Below, in pieces: positions 3,624 to 24,866 of a stretch of 26,051 bases of DNA. This DNA comes from a virus (taxonomy: Duplodnaviria; Heunggongvirae; Uroviricota; Caudoviricetes): positions 1 to 26,051 of the IMG/VR virus record IMGVR_UViG_3300015186_000011, one strand, 5' to 3'. Position numbers and translations under genes: made by a program. The notes beneath the pieces are model-generated. The model was not told the DNA's origin. It ran no database searches and saw only the letters and a program-made list of their open reading frames with translations. Position 1 is the stretch's first letter. Each line of letters starts with the position of its first letter.

Positions 3624-3785
3624 ATGAAAAAAGCATTTGCTGCACTGTTCGTTTTGTTGTCTCTGGTAGCTTCAACTCAGGCCTTTGCCGGTCGTTGTCA
3701 GCACGACAGCGACACTGCTGCTGACGGCTCCCGCTGCGGTGGGCGTTCTGCGGATTCCCGCCCGGGCGGCGGTGGCATTCGTTAA
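3624..3785 (+). CDS. Small secreted peptide (53 aa) with a signal peptide
   Basis: MKKAFAALFVLLSLVASTQAFA|GRCQHDSD...: a typical Sec signal with an AFA-G cleavage site. The mature ~31 aa carries 2 Cys and a Gly-rich tail. TTGACG (3583-3588)-16-TATAGA lies upstream. The track's ORF start at 3552 is unlikely. Confidence 0.5.
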   Translation: MKKAFAALFVLLSLVASTQAFAGRCQHDSDTAADGSRCGGRSADSRPGGGGIR

Positions 3786-3790
3786 AAACA

Positions 3791-3808
3791 AGGCCGCGAA
3801 AGCGGCCT
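3791..3808. terminator. GNRA-loop hairpin terminator between convergent genes; the U-tract is on the minus-strand (ant) side
   Basis: AGGCCGC-gaaa-GCGGCCT. The minus-strand transcript would continue as UUGUUUUUA. There is no U-tract on the plus strand. Confidence 0.7.
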
Positions 3809-3820
3809 GTGACATGTCAC
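3809..3820. repeat. 12-bp perfect palindrome GTGACATGTCAC (site 1 of 3)
   Basis: Exact copies occur at 22255-22266 and 24520-24531. This one abuts the terminator hairpin at 3791-3808. Confidence 0.9.
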
Positions 3821-3834
3821 GATAGTTTCGTTTT

Positions 3835-4091
3835 GCACATCCCTGTGCCGCCGCCCGTCAGAAGAACCCTGCCTTGTCGTTGATGTACTCCGCGTGCGTC
3901 TGGATATCACGCAGGCATTTGCTCACACCAACGATGTAACAGAACATGGTGGTCAGCTCCGCCGCCGCGCCCGATACATCGTGCCCGTCTTCCTGTAACT
4001 GGTTCAGCAGATTCATCAGCAGTGAGTTCTCCGTCAGACCGAGAACACCAGACGGAGAATGAATCAGACTGCGGTAGCCGGGCTTCAATGG
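3835..4091. repeat. Right arm of the 257-bp inverted repeat (partner 2374-2630)
   Basis: See the left arm. It covers the 3' end of the ant homologue plus ~23 nt beyond its stop. Confidence 0.9.
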
Positions 4092-4802
4092 ATAACCATA
4101 ACATTTTGTCTGTGTTTTAATTGCCTCACGAAGCGCATCTAACATCTTGACTGCCACTTCATCATTCTCTGATGCAGATCCAGCAGGGAGATACTCCCCT
4201 TCAAGCGGAACCCGAGCAACAAGAGACAACGCTTCGGCAAATTGATCTTCACCAATTTCTTTGTACGAACAGCCAAAATGAGATTTCAGTGACGACCACA
4301 TGGTGATCATCGCCTTAGCCTGTTTTTCTTTTGGCAGAGACTGACCGCGACTCATGACGAGTTGTTTAATGGCTTCCTGCTGTTCAGTTGTTATTTTACC
4401 CGGCAACGCCTTTTTAGCTTTGCGTGGGTTAACCACATGGCCTTTAGTCCAGTACTCGTAGAGCACATCGTCACACTCTTCCTGATACTGGATTACCTTG
4501 TCGCGGATTTCAGGGCGGACTTTGTTAGGGCTGATGGTTTGCAGCCAACCTGCAAGTTTGCGTAAAGCAAGACAGATAACCAGACGACGCTGAGTATCAC
4601 CGGGGAGCTGAATGGTCATTTCGACCATGCAGCTCTTAAAGCGTTGTTGCAACTTGCGGAACTGCGTTTTCCAGTCCAGCCCCATACCTTCAACGACTGG
4701 TTTCATTGGGGTGTATGGTTCGCCGTTATGATTGACAACATAAAGCTCTGCGCCGTGGAATGGCACGTTGATAGTAGATACCGCTGTTGCTATACTCGTC
4801 AT
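3858..4802 (-). CDS. ant: Antirepressor, P22 Ant-type N-terminal domain (314 aa)
   Basis: VPFHGAELYVVNHNGEPYTPMKPVVEGMGLDWKTQFRKL...LRKLAGWL fits the P22_AR_N pattern from memory. It sits directly downstream of an Arc-like gene and opposite an Mnt-like gene, as in P22 immI. Confidence 0.85.
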   Translation of the reverse strand: MTSIATAVSTINVPFHGAELYVVNHNGEPYTPMKPVVEGMGLDWKTQFRKLQQRFKSCMVEMTIQLPGDTQRRLVICLALRKLAGWLQTISPNKVRPEIRDKVIQYQEECDDVLYEYWTKGHVVNPRKAKKALPGKITTEQQEAIKQLVMSRGQSLPKEKQAKAMITMWSSLKSHFGCSYKEIGEDQFAEALSLVARVPLEGEYLPAGSASENDEVAVKMLDALREAIKTQTKCYGYPLKPGYRSLIHSPSGVLGLTENSLLMNLLNQLQEDGHDVSGAAAELTTMFCYIVGVSKCLRDIQTHAEYINDKAGFF

Positions 4803-4877
4803 GTCGTTAATTCCTATACGTAGTTTTACGATACTGAAGCCCTGACGGTCTGGCCACCGTGGGGCTTCGCTGTTTTA
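4803..4877 (+). ncRNA. sar-like antisense RNA (~70 nt) covering the ant RBS and the arc-ant spacer
   Basis: A strong promoter, TTGATA (4768-4773)-17-TATACT (4791-4796), lies inside the first ant codons and points the other way. Predicted TSS is ~4803. A terminator hairpin at 4836-4868 is followed by GCTGTTTTA. Geometry and size mirror P22 sar. Confidence 0.5.
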
Positions 4878-5132: not shown

Positions 5133-5162
5133 TTGCAAGTAACTCAATATTTGGTGAAGAAC

Positions 5163-5594
5163 ATGAGCAGAGAAGATCCACAACTAAGGATCAGACTTCC
5201 CGTTGAAGTAAAAGAAAAAATAGAAATTTCTGCAAAAGCCAATAAGCGATCAATGAACGCTGAAATAGTACAACGTCTTGACACCAGCTTTCTGAAAGAT
5301 ATTCATGAAGATGACGTAATTTCTGCTTATGAAGCAAAAATTATTGCAAACAATGCACGACATGAAATATCAAATATTATTTTCAAAAGAACCTTTAATG
5401 AAATTAATAAGAAAATAACACTTGGACATACAAGTTTTTATATAAACCTTAATGACCTTGAACTGGAATCACTTGCAGATAATGATTACCAGATCATCTT
5501 TGAAAAAACATTTAATAAGCTCAATGAACTAGGTTACATCATCTGTGAAAACTCATGGGATGCAGATGGTTTTGGAATTGAAATACCTGAATAG
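5163..5594 (+). CDS. mnt: Mnt-like RHH repressor with an extra AT-rich C-terminal domain (143 aa)
   Basis: MSREDPQLRIRLPVEVKEKIEISAKANKRSMNAEIVQRL aligns with P22 Mnt MARDDPHFNFRMPMEVREKLKFRAEANGRSMNSELLQIV (from memory). The ATG at 5163 follows GGTGA. P22 Mnt is only 83 aa, so the last ~90 aa are additional. Confidence 0.8.
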   Translation: MSREDPQLRIRLPVEVKEKIEISAKANKRSMNAEIVQRLDTSFLKDIHEDDVISAYEAKIIANNARHEISNIIFKRTFNEINKKITLGHTSFYINLNDLELESLADNDYQIIFEKTFNKLNELGYIICENSWDADGFGIEIPE

Positions 5595-9274: not shown

Positions 9275-11991
9275 TATTTAGATCCCCACGAAAAGTAATC
9301 TTTAAATTTGTCCATACGTTCGTTATGCAGGCGCTGATACTGCTCATCCAGAGCGCGATGCTTGTCTTTGAAGTTTCGTATAGCCTGTCCACGCATAATT
9401 TCTTCCTGCTCGTACTGCTCCCATTCCTGCTGCATTTTCTTATAAGGTTCCCAATCTTCTAGTGATGGTTCCCAACGCATAGGACGCCCATGTTTGTTAT
9501 AAAACGGCTGGACCCGATCGATGCCATTTTCATCCTTAGTTCTTACCATAATGGCGTAATCACCATTACGAGGTGTTAACACGTCAGGGGTTATGAATAA
9601 TTCTCCATTAATACGACTCTCAGGGGTTTTTGTCTCAACTACAGGAGCATTACCTGACGTGATCCCAAGCAACGTCGGACTGGTTGTTATAATCTCTTTG
9701 CGCTCACCGTACATCAGCCGTTCTTTTTCAGCTTTCCACTGCGCCGCCTGCCAGCCTGACGGCCCATATTGATAAAGCGCCTCCGGTGCATATTTCATAA
9801 ACTGCGCTTCTCCGTTAACCTCGCTGATACTCCAGGTGCGGGCTATCTGCTGGTTGGTCATTTGCTTCGCTACGTCAGCGTTACCACCAGCAACGCGGTA
9901 GTTAATGTCATACAGCGTCTGATAGTCATTACGGAATCTAGCTGCTTCCGGCGTCTGGTCATCCGCAGACGGATCCCAACGGAACCACTGCGCCATATTG
10001 CTGACAGCAGAATTCATCGCCTTGCTGCGATCATTTTTGTACTCTTTTGAACTCTGCGTTGATGCCAATTGAGCTTTAAGAGCATCGGTCTGGTTGTACG
10101 TAAGGTTCTGCGCCTGCTCGATAGCCGCATCAGCAGACATGCCAGAATCAGTTAGTTGCTTAACAGTCAGATAAAAACCCTGCATATCCTTCGGCATATT
10201 TCCAATAGATGCATTGTCTGTTTCATATAACCGACTAAACAGTTCCGCCGCATTTTTAACCACTTCCTGATTGCTGGATCGGGATACTGCTGAAAGCTGC
10301 GTGATGACCTGCGAAGGCATTATGCCAGTCTGAGCCACAAGCCGAACAACCCCATCATGAGTGGAGGCATCATTAATACGAAAGTTCTGCGCCATTTCTG
10401 TGTAATCAGCAGCTTTCTGCATTGACTTGTTGCTTGGGTCTAATTTTTCACCTATTGTCAGCGCCTCATTGAATCTGCGTGAATCCCGTTGCGCCTGAAT
10501 TGCTTCATTTGATCTCTGAAGCAATGCAGACAATTTTCCGTAAGCATCGAGTTTTAACGCATAGTGAGGATCGTTAACCTCAGGCTTCACTTTCTGCATT
10601 TCTTCTTGCTGCTGAGAAGGAGGCAAATACTGAATTGCCTGGAATATTCTCGCGTTATCAATCGCTATATCCAGTTGATTGATTATTTTATCTGCGTTTT
10701 TTCCATACCCCCTGATGATGGTCTCCTGAGCCGGTATATAATCTGGAACCTCACCGTTATATAGCTGTGCCATGGTGTTATTAATAGCTGGCTCAAGCTG
10801 TTCTAATATTAACTTCCTTTGCTTTTCTATCTGACTATTAGCAAGGTTATCTATTTGATAAATAGTCAGCGGATCCATTCCAGTTTTATTTTTTCTATAT
10901 CGGGAAAGCCACCCTTGTGTTTCTGATGGAAGATTTCGGATAAATTCTTCTTCTGATATTTCACCTTTACGTGGATCACCGACTTTGGCGATCAGTTTAT
11001 CCACGTTACCCATCCCCCAGTTATATGCTGCTCCGGTCAATATTTCGGAACCGTACTTACCATACAGTTGATTTACATAGTCACTGGCGAGCATTTCATG
11101 CTGTTGTTCGTCCGTAGGGTTGTATTCAACGCCACGCTTGGCCGCCAGTTCTTTTCCTGTGCCCGGCATTAACTGGTATTTCCCCTGTGCTCTCTCTCCA
11201 GAAGATGTTATCGGTCCCTCAAGAAGACTACCATCAGGATTAAAATGTCGATCACCTGATTCAACAAGGCGTATGGCACGCATGTCCATGCCTCCAGAAT
11301 CATTTTTCTGAAACAGACCATTTAGCCATCCTTCTGGATTGGCAGCGGCATAATTCTTCGCCCGCATTTCTGTGGCACTGCGATCATCACTTTCTATTTC
11401 TTCCAGAATGCGTTCTTGTGACCATCCCCTGGCAGCTCCATATCTGGCAATGGCTACCATTCTGGAATTTCGGGCTAAGGTGGCAGTTTGCGGGTCATTC
11501 CAGGCATCCGCTTCATTTTGTATCCATAATTTTCTCGTTGCCTGATATTGCTCATCTTCATAGGCATTTGTCTGCCCTATCTCATGTCTGAGAACTCCAG
11601 TACTGAACTGAATTTTCTGTGTTCTGGCTTGTTGCAAAAACATATTTCTTGCTGCTTCATCAGTCAATGAAGCAGCTATTTCTTCCACATCCTGATCAAA
11701 TCCAGATATGTACTCTTGCCCCTTACCAATCGCATTTTTGCCTTGTTGTGCATAAAAACCGGTTTGAGGGTTATAAAGACGTTCATTGCTGCGCTGATTA
11801 AGCTGAAGGATGGCATCCTGAGACAATGCAACATTCGCTTTCTGCCTGGCTTCACCATATGCCACCGCATACTGATCTGCGACATTCGCCAGCACCTGAC
11901 CTGCTTGAGGAACATCGAAGGTCTGAAAACCACCGGTTTGCACACCACGACTTTGCACCTGACGTCCGGATATTGTTGGTACGACTGGCAT
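9274..11991 (-). CDS. Internal virion protein with an SLT lytic-transglycosylase domain (905 aa)
   Basis: True start is ATG 11991 (MPVVPTISGRQ) with GGAGG upstream and a TAATG overlap with the preceding gene; the track's start at 12066 is an artefactual extension. SLT motifs: LVESGDRHF, GKYQLMPGTG, TGAAYNWGMGNV (~nt 10730-11290). Confidence 0.9.
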   Translation of the reverse strand: MPVVPTISGRQVQSRGVQTGGFQTFDVPQAGQVLANVADQYAVAYGEARQKANVALSQDAILQLNQRSNERLYNPQTGFYAQQGKNAIGKGQEYISGFDQDVEEIAASLTDEAARNMFLQQARTQKIQFSTGVLRHEIGQTNAYEDEQYQATRKLWIQNEADAWNDPQTATLARNSRMVAIARYGAARGWSQERILEEIESDDRSATEMRAKNYAAANPEGWLNGLFQKNDSGGMDMRAIRLVESGDRHFNPDGSLLEGPITSSGERAQGKYQLMPGTGKELAAKRGVEYNPTDEQQHEMLASDYVNQLYGKYGSEILTGAAYNWGMGNVDKLIAKVGDPRKGEISEEEFIRNLPSETQGWLSRYRKNKTGMDPLTIYQIDNLANSQIEKQRKLILEQLEPAINNTMAQLYNGEVPDYIPAQETIIRGYGKNADKIINQLDIAIDNARIFQAIQYLPPSQQQEEMQKVKPEVNDPHYALKLDAYGKLSALLQRSNEAIQAQRDSRRFNEALTIGEKLDPSNKSMQKAADYTEMAQNFRINDASTHDGVVRLVAQTGIMPSQVITQLSAVSRSSNQEVVKNAAELFSRLYETDNASIGNMPKDMQGFYLTVKQLTDSGMSADAAIEQAQNLTYNQTDALKAQLASTQSSKEYKNDRSKAMNSAVSNMAQWFRWDPSADDQTPEAARFRNDYQTLYDINYRVAGGNADVAKQMTNQQIARTWSISEVNGEAQFMKYAPEALYQYGPSGWQAAQWKAEKERLMYGERKEIITTSPTLLGITSGNAPVVETKTPESRINGELFITPDVLTPRNGDYAIMVRTKDENGIDRVQPFYNKHGRPMRWEPSLEDWEPYKKMQQEWEQYEQEEIMRGQAIRNFKDKHRALDEQYQRLHNERMDKFKDYFSWGSK

Positions 11992-18977: not shown

Positions 18978-19274
18978 TCACTCCTGTTCACTGGCCTCTT
19001 TGGCCATCTTCAAATACTGTTCAGGGCAATGCGCCATAACGCGCTGAAACAGTTCCAGCGCCAGATTGCGTTGCCCCTCATTAAATGCCATTGCCATAGC
19101 GTCCATCGGTGAGATAGCGGAAAACACACGGCCTTTCTCCAGCACCGACCAGACAACGCGACGCCCCTGTTCACTGCTCATGACAAAGCGAATGTCATCA
19201 ATTTCACGCTGTGCCATGTCACGTTGTTTACGGGCGTTTTCTTCTTTCAGTTGATCATCTTCGTAATCTGTCAT
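18978..19274 (-). CDS. Small conserved head-module protein (98 aa)
   Basis: ATGA overlap with the portal stop (19274-19271). Charged helical protein of unknown function. Confidence 0.7.
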   Translation of the reverse strand: MTDYEDDQLKEENARKQRDMAQREIDDIRFVMSSEQGRRVVWSVLEKGRVFSAISPMDAMAMAFNEGQRNLALELFQRVMAHCPEQYLKMAKEASEQE

Positions 19275-20950
19275 TGTGATTGCCCACCCTGACCACTAAC
19301 TGCATTCGCCATAGCTGACAAAACACTCGGATCCGAAGTTTTAGCTTCGCTTAGCGTCTTGGCGCCCTGTGCCGCCGCCATTCCCATCGCCATCATTTGT
19401 TGCTGCTGTTGCTGCTGTGCCCGTTGCTGGCGAGCCTGCTCAACCTGTTCCTGCGGAACAATGACGGTTGGAGACACTCCGGACATATCAGCGAATGCAT
19501 CGATCGCCTGATCAACGTTGAGTTTGTCGAGAGCTTCTGGTTTCGCTTGCGCAAGTTGACCAATGAAGTTGACCGTAGACGCCAGACTGGACAGGCCGAT
19601 AGACTTCTGCGCCTGAGCCATGACGGAAATGTATTCGACCTTCAGGGGCATACCTTCCATCGCGTCAGGCGGTGGCGGCAGCATGTTTTTACGCACCATC
19701 ATCGAGAAAGCGCGGTCAATGAGAGGATTAAGACATTCGTCGTTCAGACGCTCCAGAACCGGCCCCAACATCAGAAGTTTTTCTTCTTTCATTTCGATCA
19801 CCGCTTCAACAGGCATCGAGCGGGTATTGATGTTCTGCAACATCATGAACAGATCGACAAAGTAGGCGCTGTTAATGATTTGACGAGTGTCCTGAATGTC
19901 TGCCACCAAATCTGCTGTACTGGGGTTAACCAGATAAGCAGGCCTGAAGCCATCCTGACCAGTAATCTGATCGATATACGTGATGTCGCCAGGAAGAAGG
20001 GAGGCGCGCTGATTCTTGAGGGAAGTCGGAGCAACCATCGGCGGATTGGTGGCTTTATCAATCAACTGCGACTTGCGCTTCTGGAGAAGCTGCAATGCCT
20101 TAACAGGTCCAAGCGCCAGCATACCCGGGCATGATGATCCATAAACATCTTCGCCATTAACTTCCCAGCGCGGAGCCATAATTGGAAACTCATCAAATCC
20201 GGACTCACGCAACAACTTGTCGTTATCGCCACCAACCTCGTAATAAACCGATTTGAATGGCTTGTTCTTGCTATCCAGCTTCGATGTATCGCGGTCAATG
20301 TTCGGGTAAACCGAATGCATCACGTCAATCCACTTCTCGTAGTTGCCGCTTTCCCACATGCTTTTTACGGATTCGCTGACGTTATTTAGCCCGAACTCCT
20401 GAACAAGCTGACGAACAGTCATAGAGAACTTGCGAAAACAGGTGTCAACACTGCCACGAGGTGAGTTAGCCAGGTAGTAACTGCCTATCGGGAATGGCAT
20501 TGTGCGAATGATGTCCTCGTCATCCTCCAGCACTGCCATTGCACCAGTGCTGTATGTGCCGAGGCTTCCGTATAACTGCGGAAGAGACTGGTAGAGATTC
20601 GACTTATTGAACATATCGTTCATGCGGTTCTGAACTGCCTCAAGCCACAACTTAACAGGGCCATAATCCATCATTTCAGGATCTGGCGTAGCCAGGCGAA
20701 ACCACGGACGCGCGGGGCTTGTGATGCCTGACATCATGCCGCTGGCGAGAGTGCGCGCCGCCATAGTCCCGGTCGAATCAATAATGCGTGTATTGCGCCG
20801 ATCGTTACGGTTGGCCTCAGAAGTCAGAAAGCGGGAACCACGCGGGTTGATGTAATCACTCAACTCGCGCCAGTGCGGCTCGAACGACTGACGCTCGCTT
20901 TCAAGTTGTGCGAACTGTTTGTTCAATCGCTCTTTAGTTGTTTCCGCCAT
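19271..20950 (-). CDS. Portal protein (559 aa)
   Basis: Size ~62 kDa and position upstream of scaffold/capsid. The C-terminal tail is Gln-rich. RBS GGAG lies 8 nt before the ATG at 20950. Confidence 0.85.
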   Translation of the reverse strand: MAETTKERLNKQFAQLESERQSFEPHWRELSDYINPRGSRFLTSEANRNDRRNTRIIDSTGTMAARTLASGMMSGITSPARPWFRLATPDPEMMDYGPVKLWLEAVQNRMNDMFNKSNLYQSLPQLYGSLGTYSTGAMAVLEDDEDIIRTMPFPIGSYYLANSPRGSVDTCFRKFSMTVRQLVQEFGLNNVSESVKSMWESGNYEKWIDVMHSVYPNIDRDTSKLDSKNKPFKSVYYEVGGDNDKLLRESGFDEFPIMAPRWEVNGEDVYGSSCPGMLALGPVKALQLLQKRKSQLIDKATNPPMVAPTSLKNQRASLLPGDITYIDQITGQDGFRPAYLVNPSTADLVADIQDTRQIINSAYFVDLFMMLQNINTRSMPVEAVIEMKEEKLLMLGPVLERLNDECLNPLIDRAFSMMVRKNMLPPPPDAMEGMPLKVEYISVMAQAQKSIGLSSLASTVNFIGQLAQAKPEALDKLNVDQAIDAFADMSGVSPTVIVPQEQVEQARQQRAQQQQQQQMMAMGMAAAQGAKTLSEAKTSDPSVLSAMANAVSGQGGQSQ

Positions 20951-21198: not shown

Positions 21199-21276
21199 AT
21201 TACCAATTTAACCACATATGATTTATTTATCGTAGAAGGTTGACATTTGACGCGTGAATTATTACCTTTCAGGTAA
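21199..21276. promoter_or_regulatory. Intergenic control module, copy 2: ATTACC-N5-AACCACATATG (21199-21220), TTGACA (21240-21245), perfect dyad TTACC-tttca-GGTAA (21262-21276)
   Basis: Same motif pair and order as 1202-1267. It lies between the divergent portal operon (minus) and the RNA locus (plus). Confidence 0.5.
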
Positions 21277-21598: not shown

Positions 21599-21675
21599 GT
21601 GGCATTAGCTCAGTTGGACAGAGCAACCGCCTTCTAAGCGGTTGGTCGCAGGTTCGAATCCTGCATGCCACGCCA
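21599..21675 (+). tRNA. tRNA-Arg (anticodon UCU, reads AGA), CCA encoded
   Basis: Hand-folded cloverleaf: acceptor GTGGCAT/ATGCCAC, D arm GCTC-AGTTGGAC-AGAGC, anticodon arm ACCGC-CTTCTAA-GCGGT, variable loop TGGTC, T arm GCAGG-TTCGAAT-CCTGC, discriminator G, CCA. Confidence 0.95.
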
Positions 21676-21718
21676 GAATCACGCCTAAGGACCGTGATAC
21701 CAGAAGTTCCAGGTGCTT

Positions 21719-21760
21719 GGCGGTGATGGTTTCCCTTGAAGGACTATCACCGCCCTTTTT
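21719..21760 (+). terminator. Rho-independent terminator T1 after the tRNA
   Basis: GGCGGTGAT (21719-21727) pairs with ATCACCGCC (21746-21754), with an inner TCC/GGA extension, followed by CTTTTT. Confidence 0.75.
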
Positions 21761-21838
21761 ACAGCAGGACGCCATTGCGATGACTTCATGCTGTAAACCC
21801 GTACAGCCACGGAAGGCAGAACTCATTGCTTCCAGTTC

Positions 21839-21862
21839 GCCCGGTTCGCCGGGCATTTTTTT
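21839..21862 (+). terminator. Rho-independent terminator T2, 16 nt upstream of the next start codon
   Basis: GCCCGG-ttcg-CCGGGC followed by A and T7. Confidence 0.85.
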
Positions 21863-21878
21863 AAGGTGAGATTAGACT

Positions 21879-22250
21879 ATGAGTGACAAAGACATTGAAT
21901 CTGAAATTCAGGCTAAAGGTTTAGCCGCGCCGCGCGTTACGCCAGACCATATCGAGAGCATTATTGCTCAGGAGGCATATTTCACAGCAGAAGATGGTGT
22001 CTTTGGCGTAGCCATAAAAGCGAAACATACTGGCGGAGAGGTAAACTACCAGCCGCACGAATCACTTTCTCTGCTGACTTTCTGCGTTCTGGTGCTGCGC
22101 AACGGCTTCACCGTCACCGGAGAGAGCGCCTGTGCAAGCCCGGAAAACTTTGATGCGGAAATTGGTCGGAAGATTGCCCGGCAGAATGCTGTAAACAAAA
22201 TCTGGATGCTTGAAGGTTACTTGCTGAAGCAGAAGTTAAGCGAGCAATAA
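21879..22250 (+). CDS. Gp49 / Sf6 gp66 family phage protein (123 aa), function unknown
   Basis: LTFCVLVLRNGFTVTGESACASPENFDAEIGRKIARQNAVNKIWMLEGYLLKQKL is the family signature as I remember it (Phage_gp49_66). RBS GGTGAG lies 8 nt upstream. Confidence 0.8.
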   Translation: MSDKDIESEIQAKGLAAPRVTPDHIESIIAQEAYFTAEDGVFGVAIKAKHTGGEVNYQPHESLSLLTFCVLVLRNGFTVTGESACASPENFDAEIGRKIARQNAVNKIWMLEGYLLKQKLSEQ

Positions 22251-22254
22251 CACC

Positions 22255-22266
22255 GTGACATGTCAC
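22255..22266. repeat. 12-bp palindrome GTGACATGTCAC (site 2 of 3)
   Basis: An exact copy, 4 nt after the stop of the Gp49-like gene and 4 nt before the terminator hairpin. Confidence 0.9.
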
Positions 22267-22270
22267 AAAC

Positions 22271-22297
22271 AGCCAGCCGATGAGCTGGCTTTGTTTT
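22271..22297. terminator. Bidirectional terminator between the Gp49-like gene and TerL
   Basis: AGCCAGC-cgatga-GCTGGCT with AAAC upstream and TTGTTTT downstream. Confidence 0.8.
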
Positions 22298-22340
22298 ATC
22301 CTCACCAGAGGATATCTCCGTCATTATCCCCGCTAACGGA

Positions 22341-24426: not shown

Positions 24427-24441
24427 TTACCGTTGTGGTAA
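24427..24441. promoter_or_regulatory. TTACC-N5-GGTAA dyad (site D) in the terS leader, within alternating GGTAA/TTACC repeats (24419-24447)
   Basis: GGTAA-ttg-TTACC-gttgt-GGTAA-tag-TACC lies between the terminator at 24453-24478 and the terS RBS. Confidence 0.4.
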
Positions 24442-24452
24442 TAGTACCATGC

Positions 24453-24478
24453 AAAATAAAGCCGCCATAGTTGGCGGC
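24453..24478 (-). terminator. Rho-independent terminator immediately upstream of terS
   Basis: Minus strand: GCCGCCA-acua-UGGCGGC followed by UUUAUUUU. Confidence 0.85.
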
Positions 24479-24519: not shown

Positions 24520-24531
24520 GTGACATGTCAC
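24520..24531. repeat. 12-bp palindrome GTGACATGTCAC (site 3 of 3)
   Basis: An exact copy that overlaps the stop codon of the 112-aa gene. It lies in the 17-nt spacer of a weak minus-strand promoter-like pair, TTAATA (24539-24534) / TAGATT (24516-24511). Confidence 0.9.
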
Positions 24532-24866
24532 ACTATTAATTTAGTTTCATGCCAGCCTTTAGTCACCCAGCATTGCGAGTCACCATTACACGGGCATGAA
24601 TTAACGGGAACTTTCTCGCCGCACTTACCGCAACGTTTTCTGCTAATCGATTTTATACGCCCGCGCACGCGTGCATCATCCTGGCGGATCAGTAACGCTA
24701 TATACTCCCCAAATTCGTAAGGCGCACGCCCGGGGCGACGCGTGGCACAGTTACGCTCCAGCATTTCCTGCTCCTGCTTATCCAGCACCAGTTCAATTTT
24801 GCGCTCACCGGCGGCGGACTGCCGAGCGCGCTGCGCGGCTTTGCGTTCTGCGGGGGATTTAGCCAC
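24528..24866 (-). CDS. 112-aa basic protein with a C-terminal Cys-rich (zinc-ribbon-like) motif; possible regulator
   Basis: GTG at 24866 lies 8 nt after TGGAG (the track's GTG at 24875 is too close to the RBS). The C-terminus is RKRCGKCGEKVPVNSCPCNGDSQC and the N-terminus SPAERKAAQRARQ is Arg-rich. It is the last gene before the late operon. Confidence 0.65.
   Translation of the reverse strand: MAKSPAERKAAQRARQSAAGERKIELVLDKQEQEMLERNCATRRPGRAPYEFGEYIALLIRQDDARVRGRIKSISRKRCGKCGEKVPVNSCPCNGDSQCWVTKGWHETKLIV

Follow-up and report, generated by a model that had tools for sequence, protein, structure and literature searches.

A conserved GTGAC-N2-GTCAC palindrome at gene ends of temperate phages, candidate recognition site of a small ribbon-helix-helix protein

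The palindrome GTGAC-N2-GTCAC is a real and strongly conserved cis-element of phage DNA, occurring in temperate phages of enteric bacteria and Vibrio, and apparently undescribed so far. Its best reading is that of a symmetric protein-binding site. The explanation we favor as a whole, to which we assign a probability of about 0.45, is that the palindrome is the recognition site of a 112-aa protein predicted to be of the ribbon-helix-helix (RHH) type and carrying a Cys cluster, and is paired, in the epsilon15-like lineage, with terminators to form a boundary. The element was analyzed starting from a DNA stretch of 26,051 nucleotides, hereafter the window, which is, as judged from its sequence, an epsilon15/phiV10-like podovirus (Uetakevirus) prophage whose late operon is encoded by the minus strand. 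The window is 97% and 96% identical at the DNA level to Escherichia phages TL-2011b and phiV10, respectively; for Salmonella phage epsilon15 the value is about 77%, over the common structural genes. Literature searches for the 12-mer or its variants retrieved no report in a phage context, just unrelated primer sequences. The motif is unannotated in the deposited records of the relatives examined, though those of phiV10 and epsilon15 do annotate the adjoining terminators.

Three palindromes at the ends of transcription units

Exactly three perfect copies of the 12-mer reside in the window, at the positions originally reported (3809, 22255 and 24520), and no further perfect copy was found. The relevant features, ordered by coordinates, are the following:

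3783-3808, minus strand: intrinsic terminator, formed by hairpin 3808-3791 and a T tract; abuts copy 1
3809-3820, no strand assigned: palindrome copy 1, GTGACATGTCAC, downstream of ant, at the end of the late (structural) operon
19211-19222, no strand assigned: near-copy GTGCCATGTCAC, one mismatch, within a head gene
22255-22266, no strand assigned: palindrome copy 2, GTGACATGTCAC, between the convergent terL (minus) and tRNA/Gp49-like unit (plus)
22271-22298, plus strand: intrinsic terminator of the Gp49-like gene, formed by hairpin 22271-22290 and a T tract
24427-24449, minus strand: extended -10-like element (TGgTACTAT) and CI-type Rep operator (TTACC-N5-GGTAA, 24427-24441), before terS
24453-24478, minus strand: intrinsic terminator closing the early-right operon, formed by hairpin 24478-24461 and a T tract
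24520-24531, no strand assigned: palindrome copy 3, GTGACATGTCAC, holding the TGA stop (24530-24528) of the 112-aa gene
24528-24866, minus strand: gene of the 112-aa protein (epsilon15 gp49 / phiV10 p55 / N15 gp46 family, PHROG 536), candidate palindrome binder

A chance origin of the three copies is ruled out, since GTGACATGTCAC was found in none of 100 dinucleotide-preserving shuffles of the window, and the rarity initially estimated is thus borne out. A scan tolerating mismatches adds the single near-copy GTGCCATGTCAC, which is found also in TL-2011b and phiV10, is missing in epsilon15 and Tyrion, and is probably incidental. When the 60-nt flanks of the three copies are compared pairwise in either orientation, identity ranges from 18 to 37%, the level of random sequences, and exact identity reaches at most 2 nt past the 12-mer. 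The copies, as had been claimed, therefore do not derive from a duplicated segment, and the same data dismiss a dispersed repeat or a mobile miniature element.

The initial annotation placed each copy between a stop codon and a rho-independent terminator, and coordinates and strands agree with this order at all three sites. Copy 1 comes after ant (3858-4802, minus strand), which encodes a P22_AR_N domain. Copy 2 starts 4 nt past the stop of the Gp49/Sf6-gp66-like gene (21879-22250, plus strand, PF13876) and ends 4 nt ahead of hairpin 22271-22290; read in the late direction, this hairpin has no T tract and is directly followed by the palindrome. At copy 1 as at copy 2, it is the hairpin side without the T tract that borders the palindrome. 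Terminator 24478-24461 is found 41 nt downstream of copy 3. The motif does not contribute to the terminator stems: in minimum-free-energy folds the terminators are separate hairpins, and the motif pairs only with itself.

All copies are transcribed just ahead of a terminator, and a palindrome yields the same RNA from either strand. Both features could suit an RNA element, be it a 3' UTR hairpin processed by RNase III or another enzyme, or affecting transcript stability, or an antitermination signal of the nut type for the arginine-rich N-terminus of the 112-aa protein, which carries a basic N-terminal helix. Yet the stem is just 4 bp long (-1.2 kcal/mol), far below the size of RNase III substrates (about 20 bp), and the RNase III-type processing hairpin earlier proposed must be abandoned. 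A 2-nt loop would keep positions 5 and 8 (C and G) from pairing, and yet these are invariant, while the central 2 nt vary; such a pattern is expected of a DNA dyad rather than of a hairpin. Moreover, no Rfam family matches at the motif, the predicted fold of the protein is a DNA-binding RHH, and SPN1S keeps all three sites with a protein devoid of the basic helix. An RNA role is highly improbable.

Known DNA sites do not account for the palindrome either. The consensus sequences of CRP and FNR are TGTGA-N6-TCACA and TTGAT-N4-ATCAA, respectively. The palindrome is off register by one base per half-site, the TGA being nearer to the dyad on each side, and CRP had been correctly set aside. CI-type repressor sites (ATTACC-N4-5-GGTAAT) are annotated in the epsilon15 record before terS, the head genes and the tailspike. 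The window hosts four TTACC-N5-GGTAA sites (1633-1647, 2693-2707, 21262-21276 and 24427-24441), a count reached in 0 of 100 shuffles, which precede terS and the head genes or are close to the antirepressor/tailspike region; the TGgTACTAT element before terS looks like a promoter, as inferred from its sequence. Because CI-type sites precede them, the late units have their own repressor-controlled starts, and the palindrome, different in sequence and separate from the Rep-type sites, is a different element. The LexA consensus is different as well, and the LexA boxes found beside copy 3 in some relatives belong to an inserted cassette. A genome terminus or pac site is rejected: the phiV10 record starts within the palindrome since the depositors cut at the end of gene 55, and the remaining copies are far from terS. 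Copy 3 could be taken for part of a promoter (GTGACA-17/18-TAAATT or CATGAT), but the hairpins next to copies 1 and 2 leave no room for a -10 element, and copy 3 is not at a fixed distance from the terS promoter, the window and epsilon15 differing by 17 bp in this respect.

Conservation, spacing and placement in other phages

Absence from relatives, or lack of a conserved position, had been regarded initially as an argument against the element; neither was observed. Phages epsilon15, SPN1S and Tyrion carry the identical 12-mer at all three orthologous positions, phiV10 has two exact copies and a one-mismatch copy (GTGACATGTTAC) spanning the record ends, TL-2011b two exact copies and a degenerate one. 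Overall DNA identity between the window and the epsilon15-like relatives having the same three sites is about 77-82%. Palindrome and terminator of copy 1 are kept in phiV10, epsilon15, Tyrion and SPN1S, and follow different last genes (ant, p21, gp18, gp19). At copy 2 the differing leftward genes all stop about 4-5 nt away. The analysis was extended to 13 prophage loci from other genera, among which Citrobacter, Klebsiella, Pantoea and Erwinia. The copy located after terL invariably has the structure hairpin, 4 nt, palindrome, GG (10 loci, several genera), and the gene beyond is variable. Variable also is what lies downstream of copy 3, either a terminator and terS, or a LexA-box promoter cassette, or another terminator. 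Two minor observations concern the same genomes. SPN1S carries a fourth copy with one mismatch (GTGACATGTCAT) at 26722, which holds the stop of the Rz-like last lysis gene. In some prophages the LexA-box cassette (TTGAC...TACTGT-N8-ACAGTA) directly follows the palindrome at the regulator stop (e.g., locus coordinates 10354-10420), and in one of them the first gene of the cassette starts like UmuD.

Aligned position by position, the three Uetakevirus sites exhibit a palindrome which is 100% conserved, one flank which is conserved, and another flank which is unrelated. The palindrome therefore sits exactly at mosaic junctions. The identity of the 12-mer at orthologous positions, next to a completely diverged flank, points to purifying selection. 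It could be argued that the palindrome is mainly a linker, where recombination exchanges accessory genes (morons) with no dedicated binding protein, and the junctions, as the variety of genes ending next to copies 1 and 2 or following copy 3, are what this predicts. On the other hand, 12 bp are very short for homologous exchange, both half-sites and the 2-bp spacing are strict and the center is freer, a signature of protein recognition, and the motif is common to phages otherwise non-homologous. N15 has three sites, one within repA, and all three are kept in Klebsiella phage KpLi5; no junction exists within repA. We consider a linker very unlikely. The recombination scar hypothesized at first was correct in locating the sites precisely at conserved/variable junctions, but perfect conservation across genera, and inside repA of N15 and KpLi5, favors a selected functional site over a scar.

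The general form of the motif was derived by counting GTGAC-Nk-GTCAC, for each k, in 689 kb of DNA from related, regulator-bearing phages. Sites with k=2 are 44, one site has k=3, and other spacings are missing, against 0.66 expected for each; the everted arrangement of the half-sites is at background level in the same DNA. The central dinucleotide is AT in 32 of the 44 k=2 sites, and varies in the remainder. Invariant half-sites, a fixed spacing and a freer center are, taken together, the signature of a symmetric DNA-binding protein.

Viral contigs were scanned for the exact TGTGACATGTCACA, and 41 independent flank contexts were distinguished among the matches listed. In 16 of these 41 contexts the site is deep inside a long ORF, vs 81% of random positions, and in 7 a terminator is found within 60 nt, vs 4.8% of random positions. 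The element is thus located preferentially at gene ends, and has terminators nearby more often than random positions do, but pairing with a terminator is not a defining trait. The link to terminators noticed at the beginning hence holds as a conserved trait of the epsilon15-like lineage, and elsewhere is limited to those 7 of the 41 contexts among the matches listed. Outside this lineage, sites are located within genes (ZF40, N15 repA), before the LexA-box promoter cassette, or 12-20 nt ahead of start codons, directly before ribosome-binding sites (N15 gene 47, terS of Vibrio phage K233). In K233, whose regulator is 33% identical to the 112-aa protein, GTGAC/N2 ties as the commonest 5-nt inverted repeat, with 3 sites. 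The same phage has a lone 13-bp site, GTGACACCGTCAC, at 19491, matching the host matS consensus.

An asymmetric variant, GTGACCGGACAC, is recurrent in Aeromonas phage 85AhydR10PP (19904, 44302 and 46954), where each copy is 13-16 nt upstream of a start codon, and one directly precedes the regulator homologue. It has been found also in two metagenomic relatives, at 3731 and 4359 in one, at 4599 in the other. P2-like phages, as Yersinia phage vB_YenM_42.18 and others, carry a perfect and a one-mismatch palindrome 33 bp apart, corresponding to about three helical turns; in vB_YenM_42.18 the pair (11675, 11708) is 3.4 kb from the regulator gene.

The 112-aa protein as candidate binder

The initial annotation overlooked the 112-aa gene ending in copy 3 as encoding the probable cognate DNA-binding protein. 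The protein belongs to PHROG 536, labelled "transcriptional regulator", and has no match in Pfam, NCBIfam and PDB sequence searches. Its family includes 712 protein clusters in public data, and is represented in 151 phage records. Members are found in Uetakeviruses, Pectobacterium myovirus ZF40, Pantoea phage AH07, N15 (gp46) and N15-like Klebsiella phages, P2-like Yersinia phages, and in Vibrio and Aeromonas phages. In an alignment of 46 sequences R8, C79 and C82 are invariant, and the Cys cluster is conserved. In the AlphaFold2 model (pLDDT 88.7), a basic helix at the N-terminus is followed by an extended segment (KIELVL), by two helices and by a Cys-rich knuckle. The protein is predicted to be an RHH DNA binder with a C-terminal Cys cluster, and a symmetric RHH dimer would suit a 12-bp dyad. 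The SPN1S regulator (38348-38656) lacks the basic N-terminal helix, and retains strand and Cys cluster. Profile matches to TraR/DksA-like zinc fingers reach E-values of 0.07-0.16 only, and fold searches against viral models and PADLOC returned nothing informative. Three distant homologues of the regulator reside in stretches of accessory genes, and adjoin predicted anti-defence genes (Acb2/Tad1 hairpin, Tad2-like, Sequestin).

Gene and site are linked. The site overlaps the regulator stop in the window, epsilon15, Tyrion, SPN1S, TL-2011b, N15, KpLi5 and AH07. In AH07 the regulator gene is beside xis/int, away from terS, and the site is still at its stop; in ZF40 the site is 3 nt past the stop, wholly outside the coding sequence. 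Among 13 loci in bacterial genomes, the site is at the regulator stop in 9, and within about 200 nt in two more; among distant homologues (29-40% identity), it is at the stop in 3 of the 8 looked up. The surroundings of the regulator-stop sites have nothing else in common across these phages. Consistently, when the ORFs ending at TGTGACATGTCACA in the matches listed are clustered, the PHROG 536 family is, in our reading of the clusters, the largest group of plausible protein-coding ones. From sequence linkage we lean towards the view that the 112-aa protein binds the palindrome.

A different binder, either a host factor or another phage protein, may be envisaged, the regulator gene merely tending to end at the site. 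From Vibrio to Escherichia phages the half-sites are invariant, while the regulators range from 100% down to 30% identity. In the three variant-site proteins, no residue change in the predicted DNA-reading strand clearly tracks with GTGACCGGACAC, as Arg is found at one predicted-strand position in two of them, and not in the third. Furthermore, phages with no detectable regulator homologue carry the palindrome, namely ST16-OXA48phi5.3, BUCT708 (2 sites) and Fels-1 (one). In Klebsiella phage ST16-OXA48phi5.3 the palindrome is at the stop of Cro (7537). This unrelated Cro-like gene ends in the palindrome TGA (...GTG TGA CATGTCAC), in the same frame as the regulator gene; the arrangement recurs in about 20 viral contigs among the matches listed. 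Half-sites changing in no way with the protein, and palindromes in regulator-less phages, are compatible with a conserved factor of the host, or with a protein provided in trans. Against this view, host MatP sites have a 3-bp spacer, seen in 1 of 45 phage sites, the literature search gave no factor for the consensus, and to our knowledge no E. coli factor has a GTGAC-N2-GTCAC consensus; in addition, the linkage to the regulator stop recurs in contexts which share nothing else. Exact palindromes are found within the Q antiterminator genes of Fels-1 (11161) and AH07 (34430), where the encoded residues are V-T-C-H, part of a CxxC zinc motif. Coding constraints may account for these copies, including the one in the regulator-less Fels-1. 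Another binder is, all considered, quite unlikely. Arc/Mnt-type proteins of the ant region are rejected as binders, since the palindrome is kept in phages lacking that region.

Possible mode of action and comparison with known systems

In the model proposed, the dimer of a small RHH protein ending in a Cys-rich knuckle would recognize GTGAC-N2-GTCAC. In the epsilon15-like lineage the three sites mark the 3' ends of the early-right operon, of the terminase unit facing the tRNA/Gp49-like unit, and of the structural operon. The protein, made from the end of the early operon, would then occupy the three sites, and act when bound as an orientation-independent boundary or roadblock, supplementing terminators that work in one direction. 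At copies 1 and 2, transcription coming from the side lacking the T tract would meet the hairpin, and then the bound protein. That binding blocks or insulates transcription is, on the sequence data, a doubtful part of the model. Operators at the 3' end of their own gene are atypical for RHH repressors, and an element serving only to assist terminators is at odds with the site in N15 repA and with those preceding ribosome-binding sites (N15 gene 47, K233 terS). In the late direction the terminator comes after copies 1 and 3, and a roadblock placed before it would be partly redundant. Of the protein roadblock or termination control site proposed at first, the protein site has become the best reading of the palindrome, while the pairing with terminators is not general.

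The system closest in sequence is MatP/matS, by which E. coli and Vibrio organize their Ter macrodomain. The E. coli matS consensus, GTGACRNYGTCAC, is 13 bp long and has the form GTGAC-N3-GTCAC (PMC6907758). The phage palindrome has identical inverted half-sites, and differs in the spacer alone, which is 2 and not 3 bp (44:1 in phage DNA, 3 of 3 in the window). As MatP is an RHH protein, and the phage protein is predicted to be one, and sites are in both cases few, dispersed, and often away from promoters, the phage pair possibly works, by analogy, like MatP/matS. The protein does not qualify as a member of the MatP family. The hhalign probability against E. coli MatP is 0.2, not significant, the MatP homologues gathered for the comparison being near-identical sequences only; PF06303 and PF17414 are not among the 25 families listed of the 32 hit in a scan of family members; the MatP N-terminal four-helix bundle and C-terminal coiled coil are missing, and a Cys knuckle is present instead. 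Differently from matS, the phage sites are at gene ends and next to terminators, one at the stop codon of the protein itself.

The likeness to matS raises the question of whether the pair marks or organizes phage DNA by bridging, condensation, tethering, or the exclusion of MukBEF-type condensins, rather than affecting transcription, terminators being close incidentally because both reside in non-coding gaps. Genomes with 1-3 sites placed kilobases apart, sites within genes (N15 and KpLi5 repA, ZF40) compatible with a function insensitive to position, and one site beside the gene of the protein, as in many centromere-type systems, would all be in keeping with an architectural role. The phages of the family infect Enterobacterales, Vibrio and Aeromonas, taxa known to carry MatP. 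In contrast, the protein lacks MatP homology and MatP domains, while gene interiors are strongly avoided and hairpins are found at a conserved 0-4 nt from the palindrome, which points to transcription; an architectural role is unlikely. Unlikely as well is a combined version, a phage-private, spacing-shifted MatP/matS, in which the RHH protein would load onto 1-3 sites, in cis thanks to the one contained in the end of its own gene, organize or bridge the genome or bar MukBEF, and in epsilon15-like phages would also make terminators two-way.

The recognition of a palindrome by the 112-aa protein would be reminiscent also of classical RHH pairs (P22 Arc, Mnt, CopG, MetJ, omega of pSM19035), in which small dimeric RHH proteins likewise bind short symmetric or repeated sites. 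Omega binds 7-bp heptads containing TCAC, and the centers of the palindrome half-sites are likewise 7 bp apart. In one Aeromonas phage the variant site immediately precedes the regulator gene, as is classical for autoregulation. However, the phage sites are mostly at the 3' end or stop codon of the regulator, and not at its promoter, are single and isolated rather than in arrays, and the protein has an extra Cys-rich C-terminal domain.

A likeness to lambda-type late control (Q/site/terminator, N/nut) is in the gene order, as the regulator is in the Q position, the last early gene before terS, and copy 3 is followed by a terminator and late genes. The protein has no Q-family match, and N15 and AH07 encode both the protein and their own Q; the late units here have their own Rep-controlled promoters; and at copies 1 and 2, located at operon ends with no room for a promoter, antitermination makes little sense. 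A Q-type antitermination module was thus rejected. KorA and KorB sites of RK2 are palindromes of 12-13 bp repeated over the plasmid, some far from promoters. The phage element resembles them in being a short perfect palindrome repeated a few times over a mobile genome, and differs in that other protein families are involved, no partition ATPase is linked, and the sites are at gene 3' ends.

If the pairing of protein and palindrome is confirmed, a widespread and unannotated regulator-site pair would be added to phages which include the models epsilon15, phiV10, SPN1S and N15. Its layout would be unusual, as the regulator gene contains the site at its 3' end, and one lineage has the site joined to terminators at every boundary between transcription units. 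It would provide a handle on how these podoviruses insulate early, packaging, structural and accessory (moron) units, and on why mosaic junctions fall precisely at the palindrome; given the half-sites identical to matS, it would also bear on whether phages copy host chromosome-organizing systems. In practice, the 12-mer may serve as a simple landmark to annotate module boundaries in these prophages.

Additional elements of the window were noted. Rfam searches identified the sar antisense RNA at 4804-4871 (plus strand), opposite the 5' end of ant and, further left, the C4 antisense RNA and isrK at 1779-1866 and 1684-1760, respectively (both plus strand). The prophage hence combines a P22 immI-like module with one for antirepressor control of the P1 c4 type. 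The gene at 5133-5594 (plus strand), whose 153-aa product has an Arc-like RHH domain, faces the arc/ant/sar unit, and occupies the position of Mnt in P22. Upstream of the Gp49-like gene, Rfam detects a tRNA gene (21599-21672, plus strand), which overlaps a mechanically called minus-strand ORF (21605-21856). The latter matches PHROG 4647 and is annotated as a coding sequence in relatives, and either the tRNA or the ORF annotation may be spurious.
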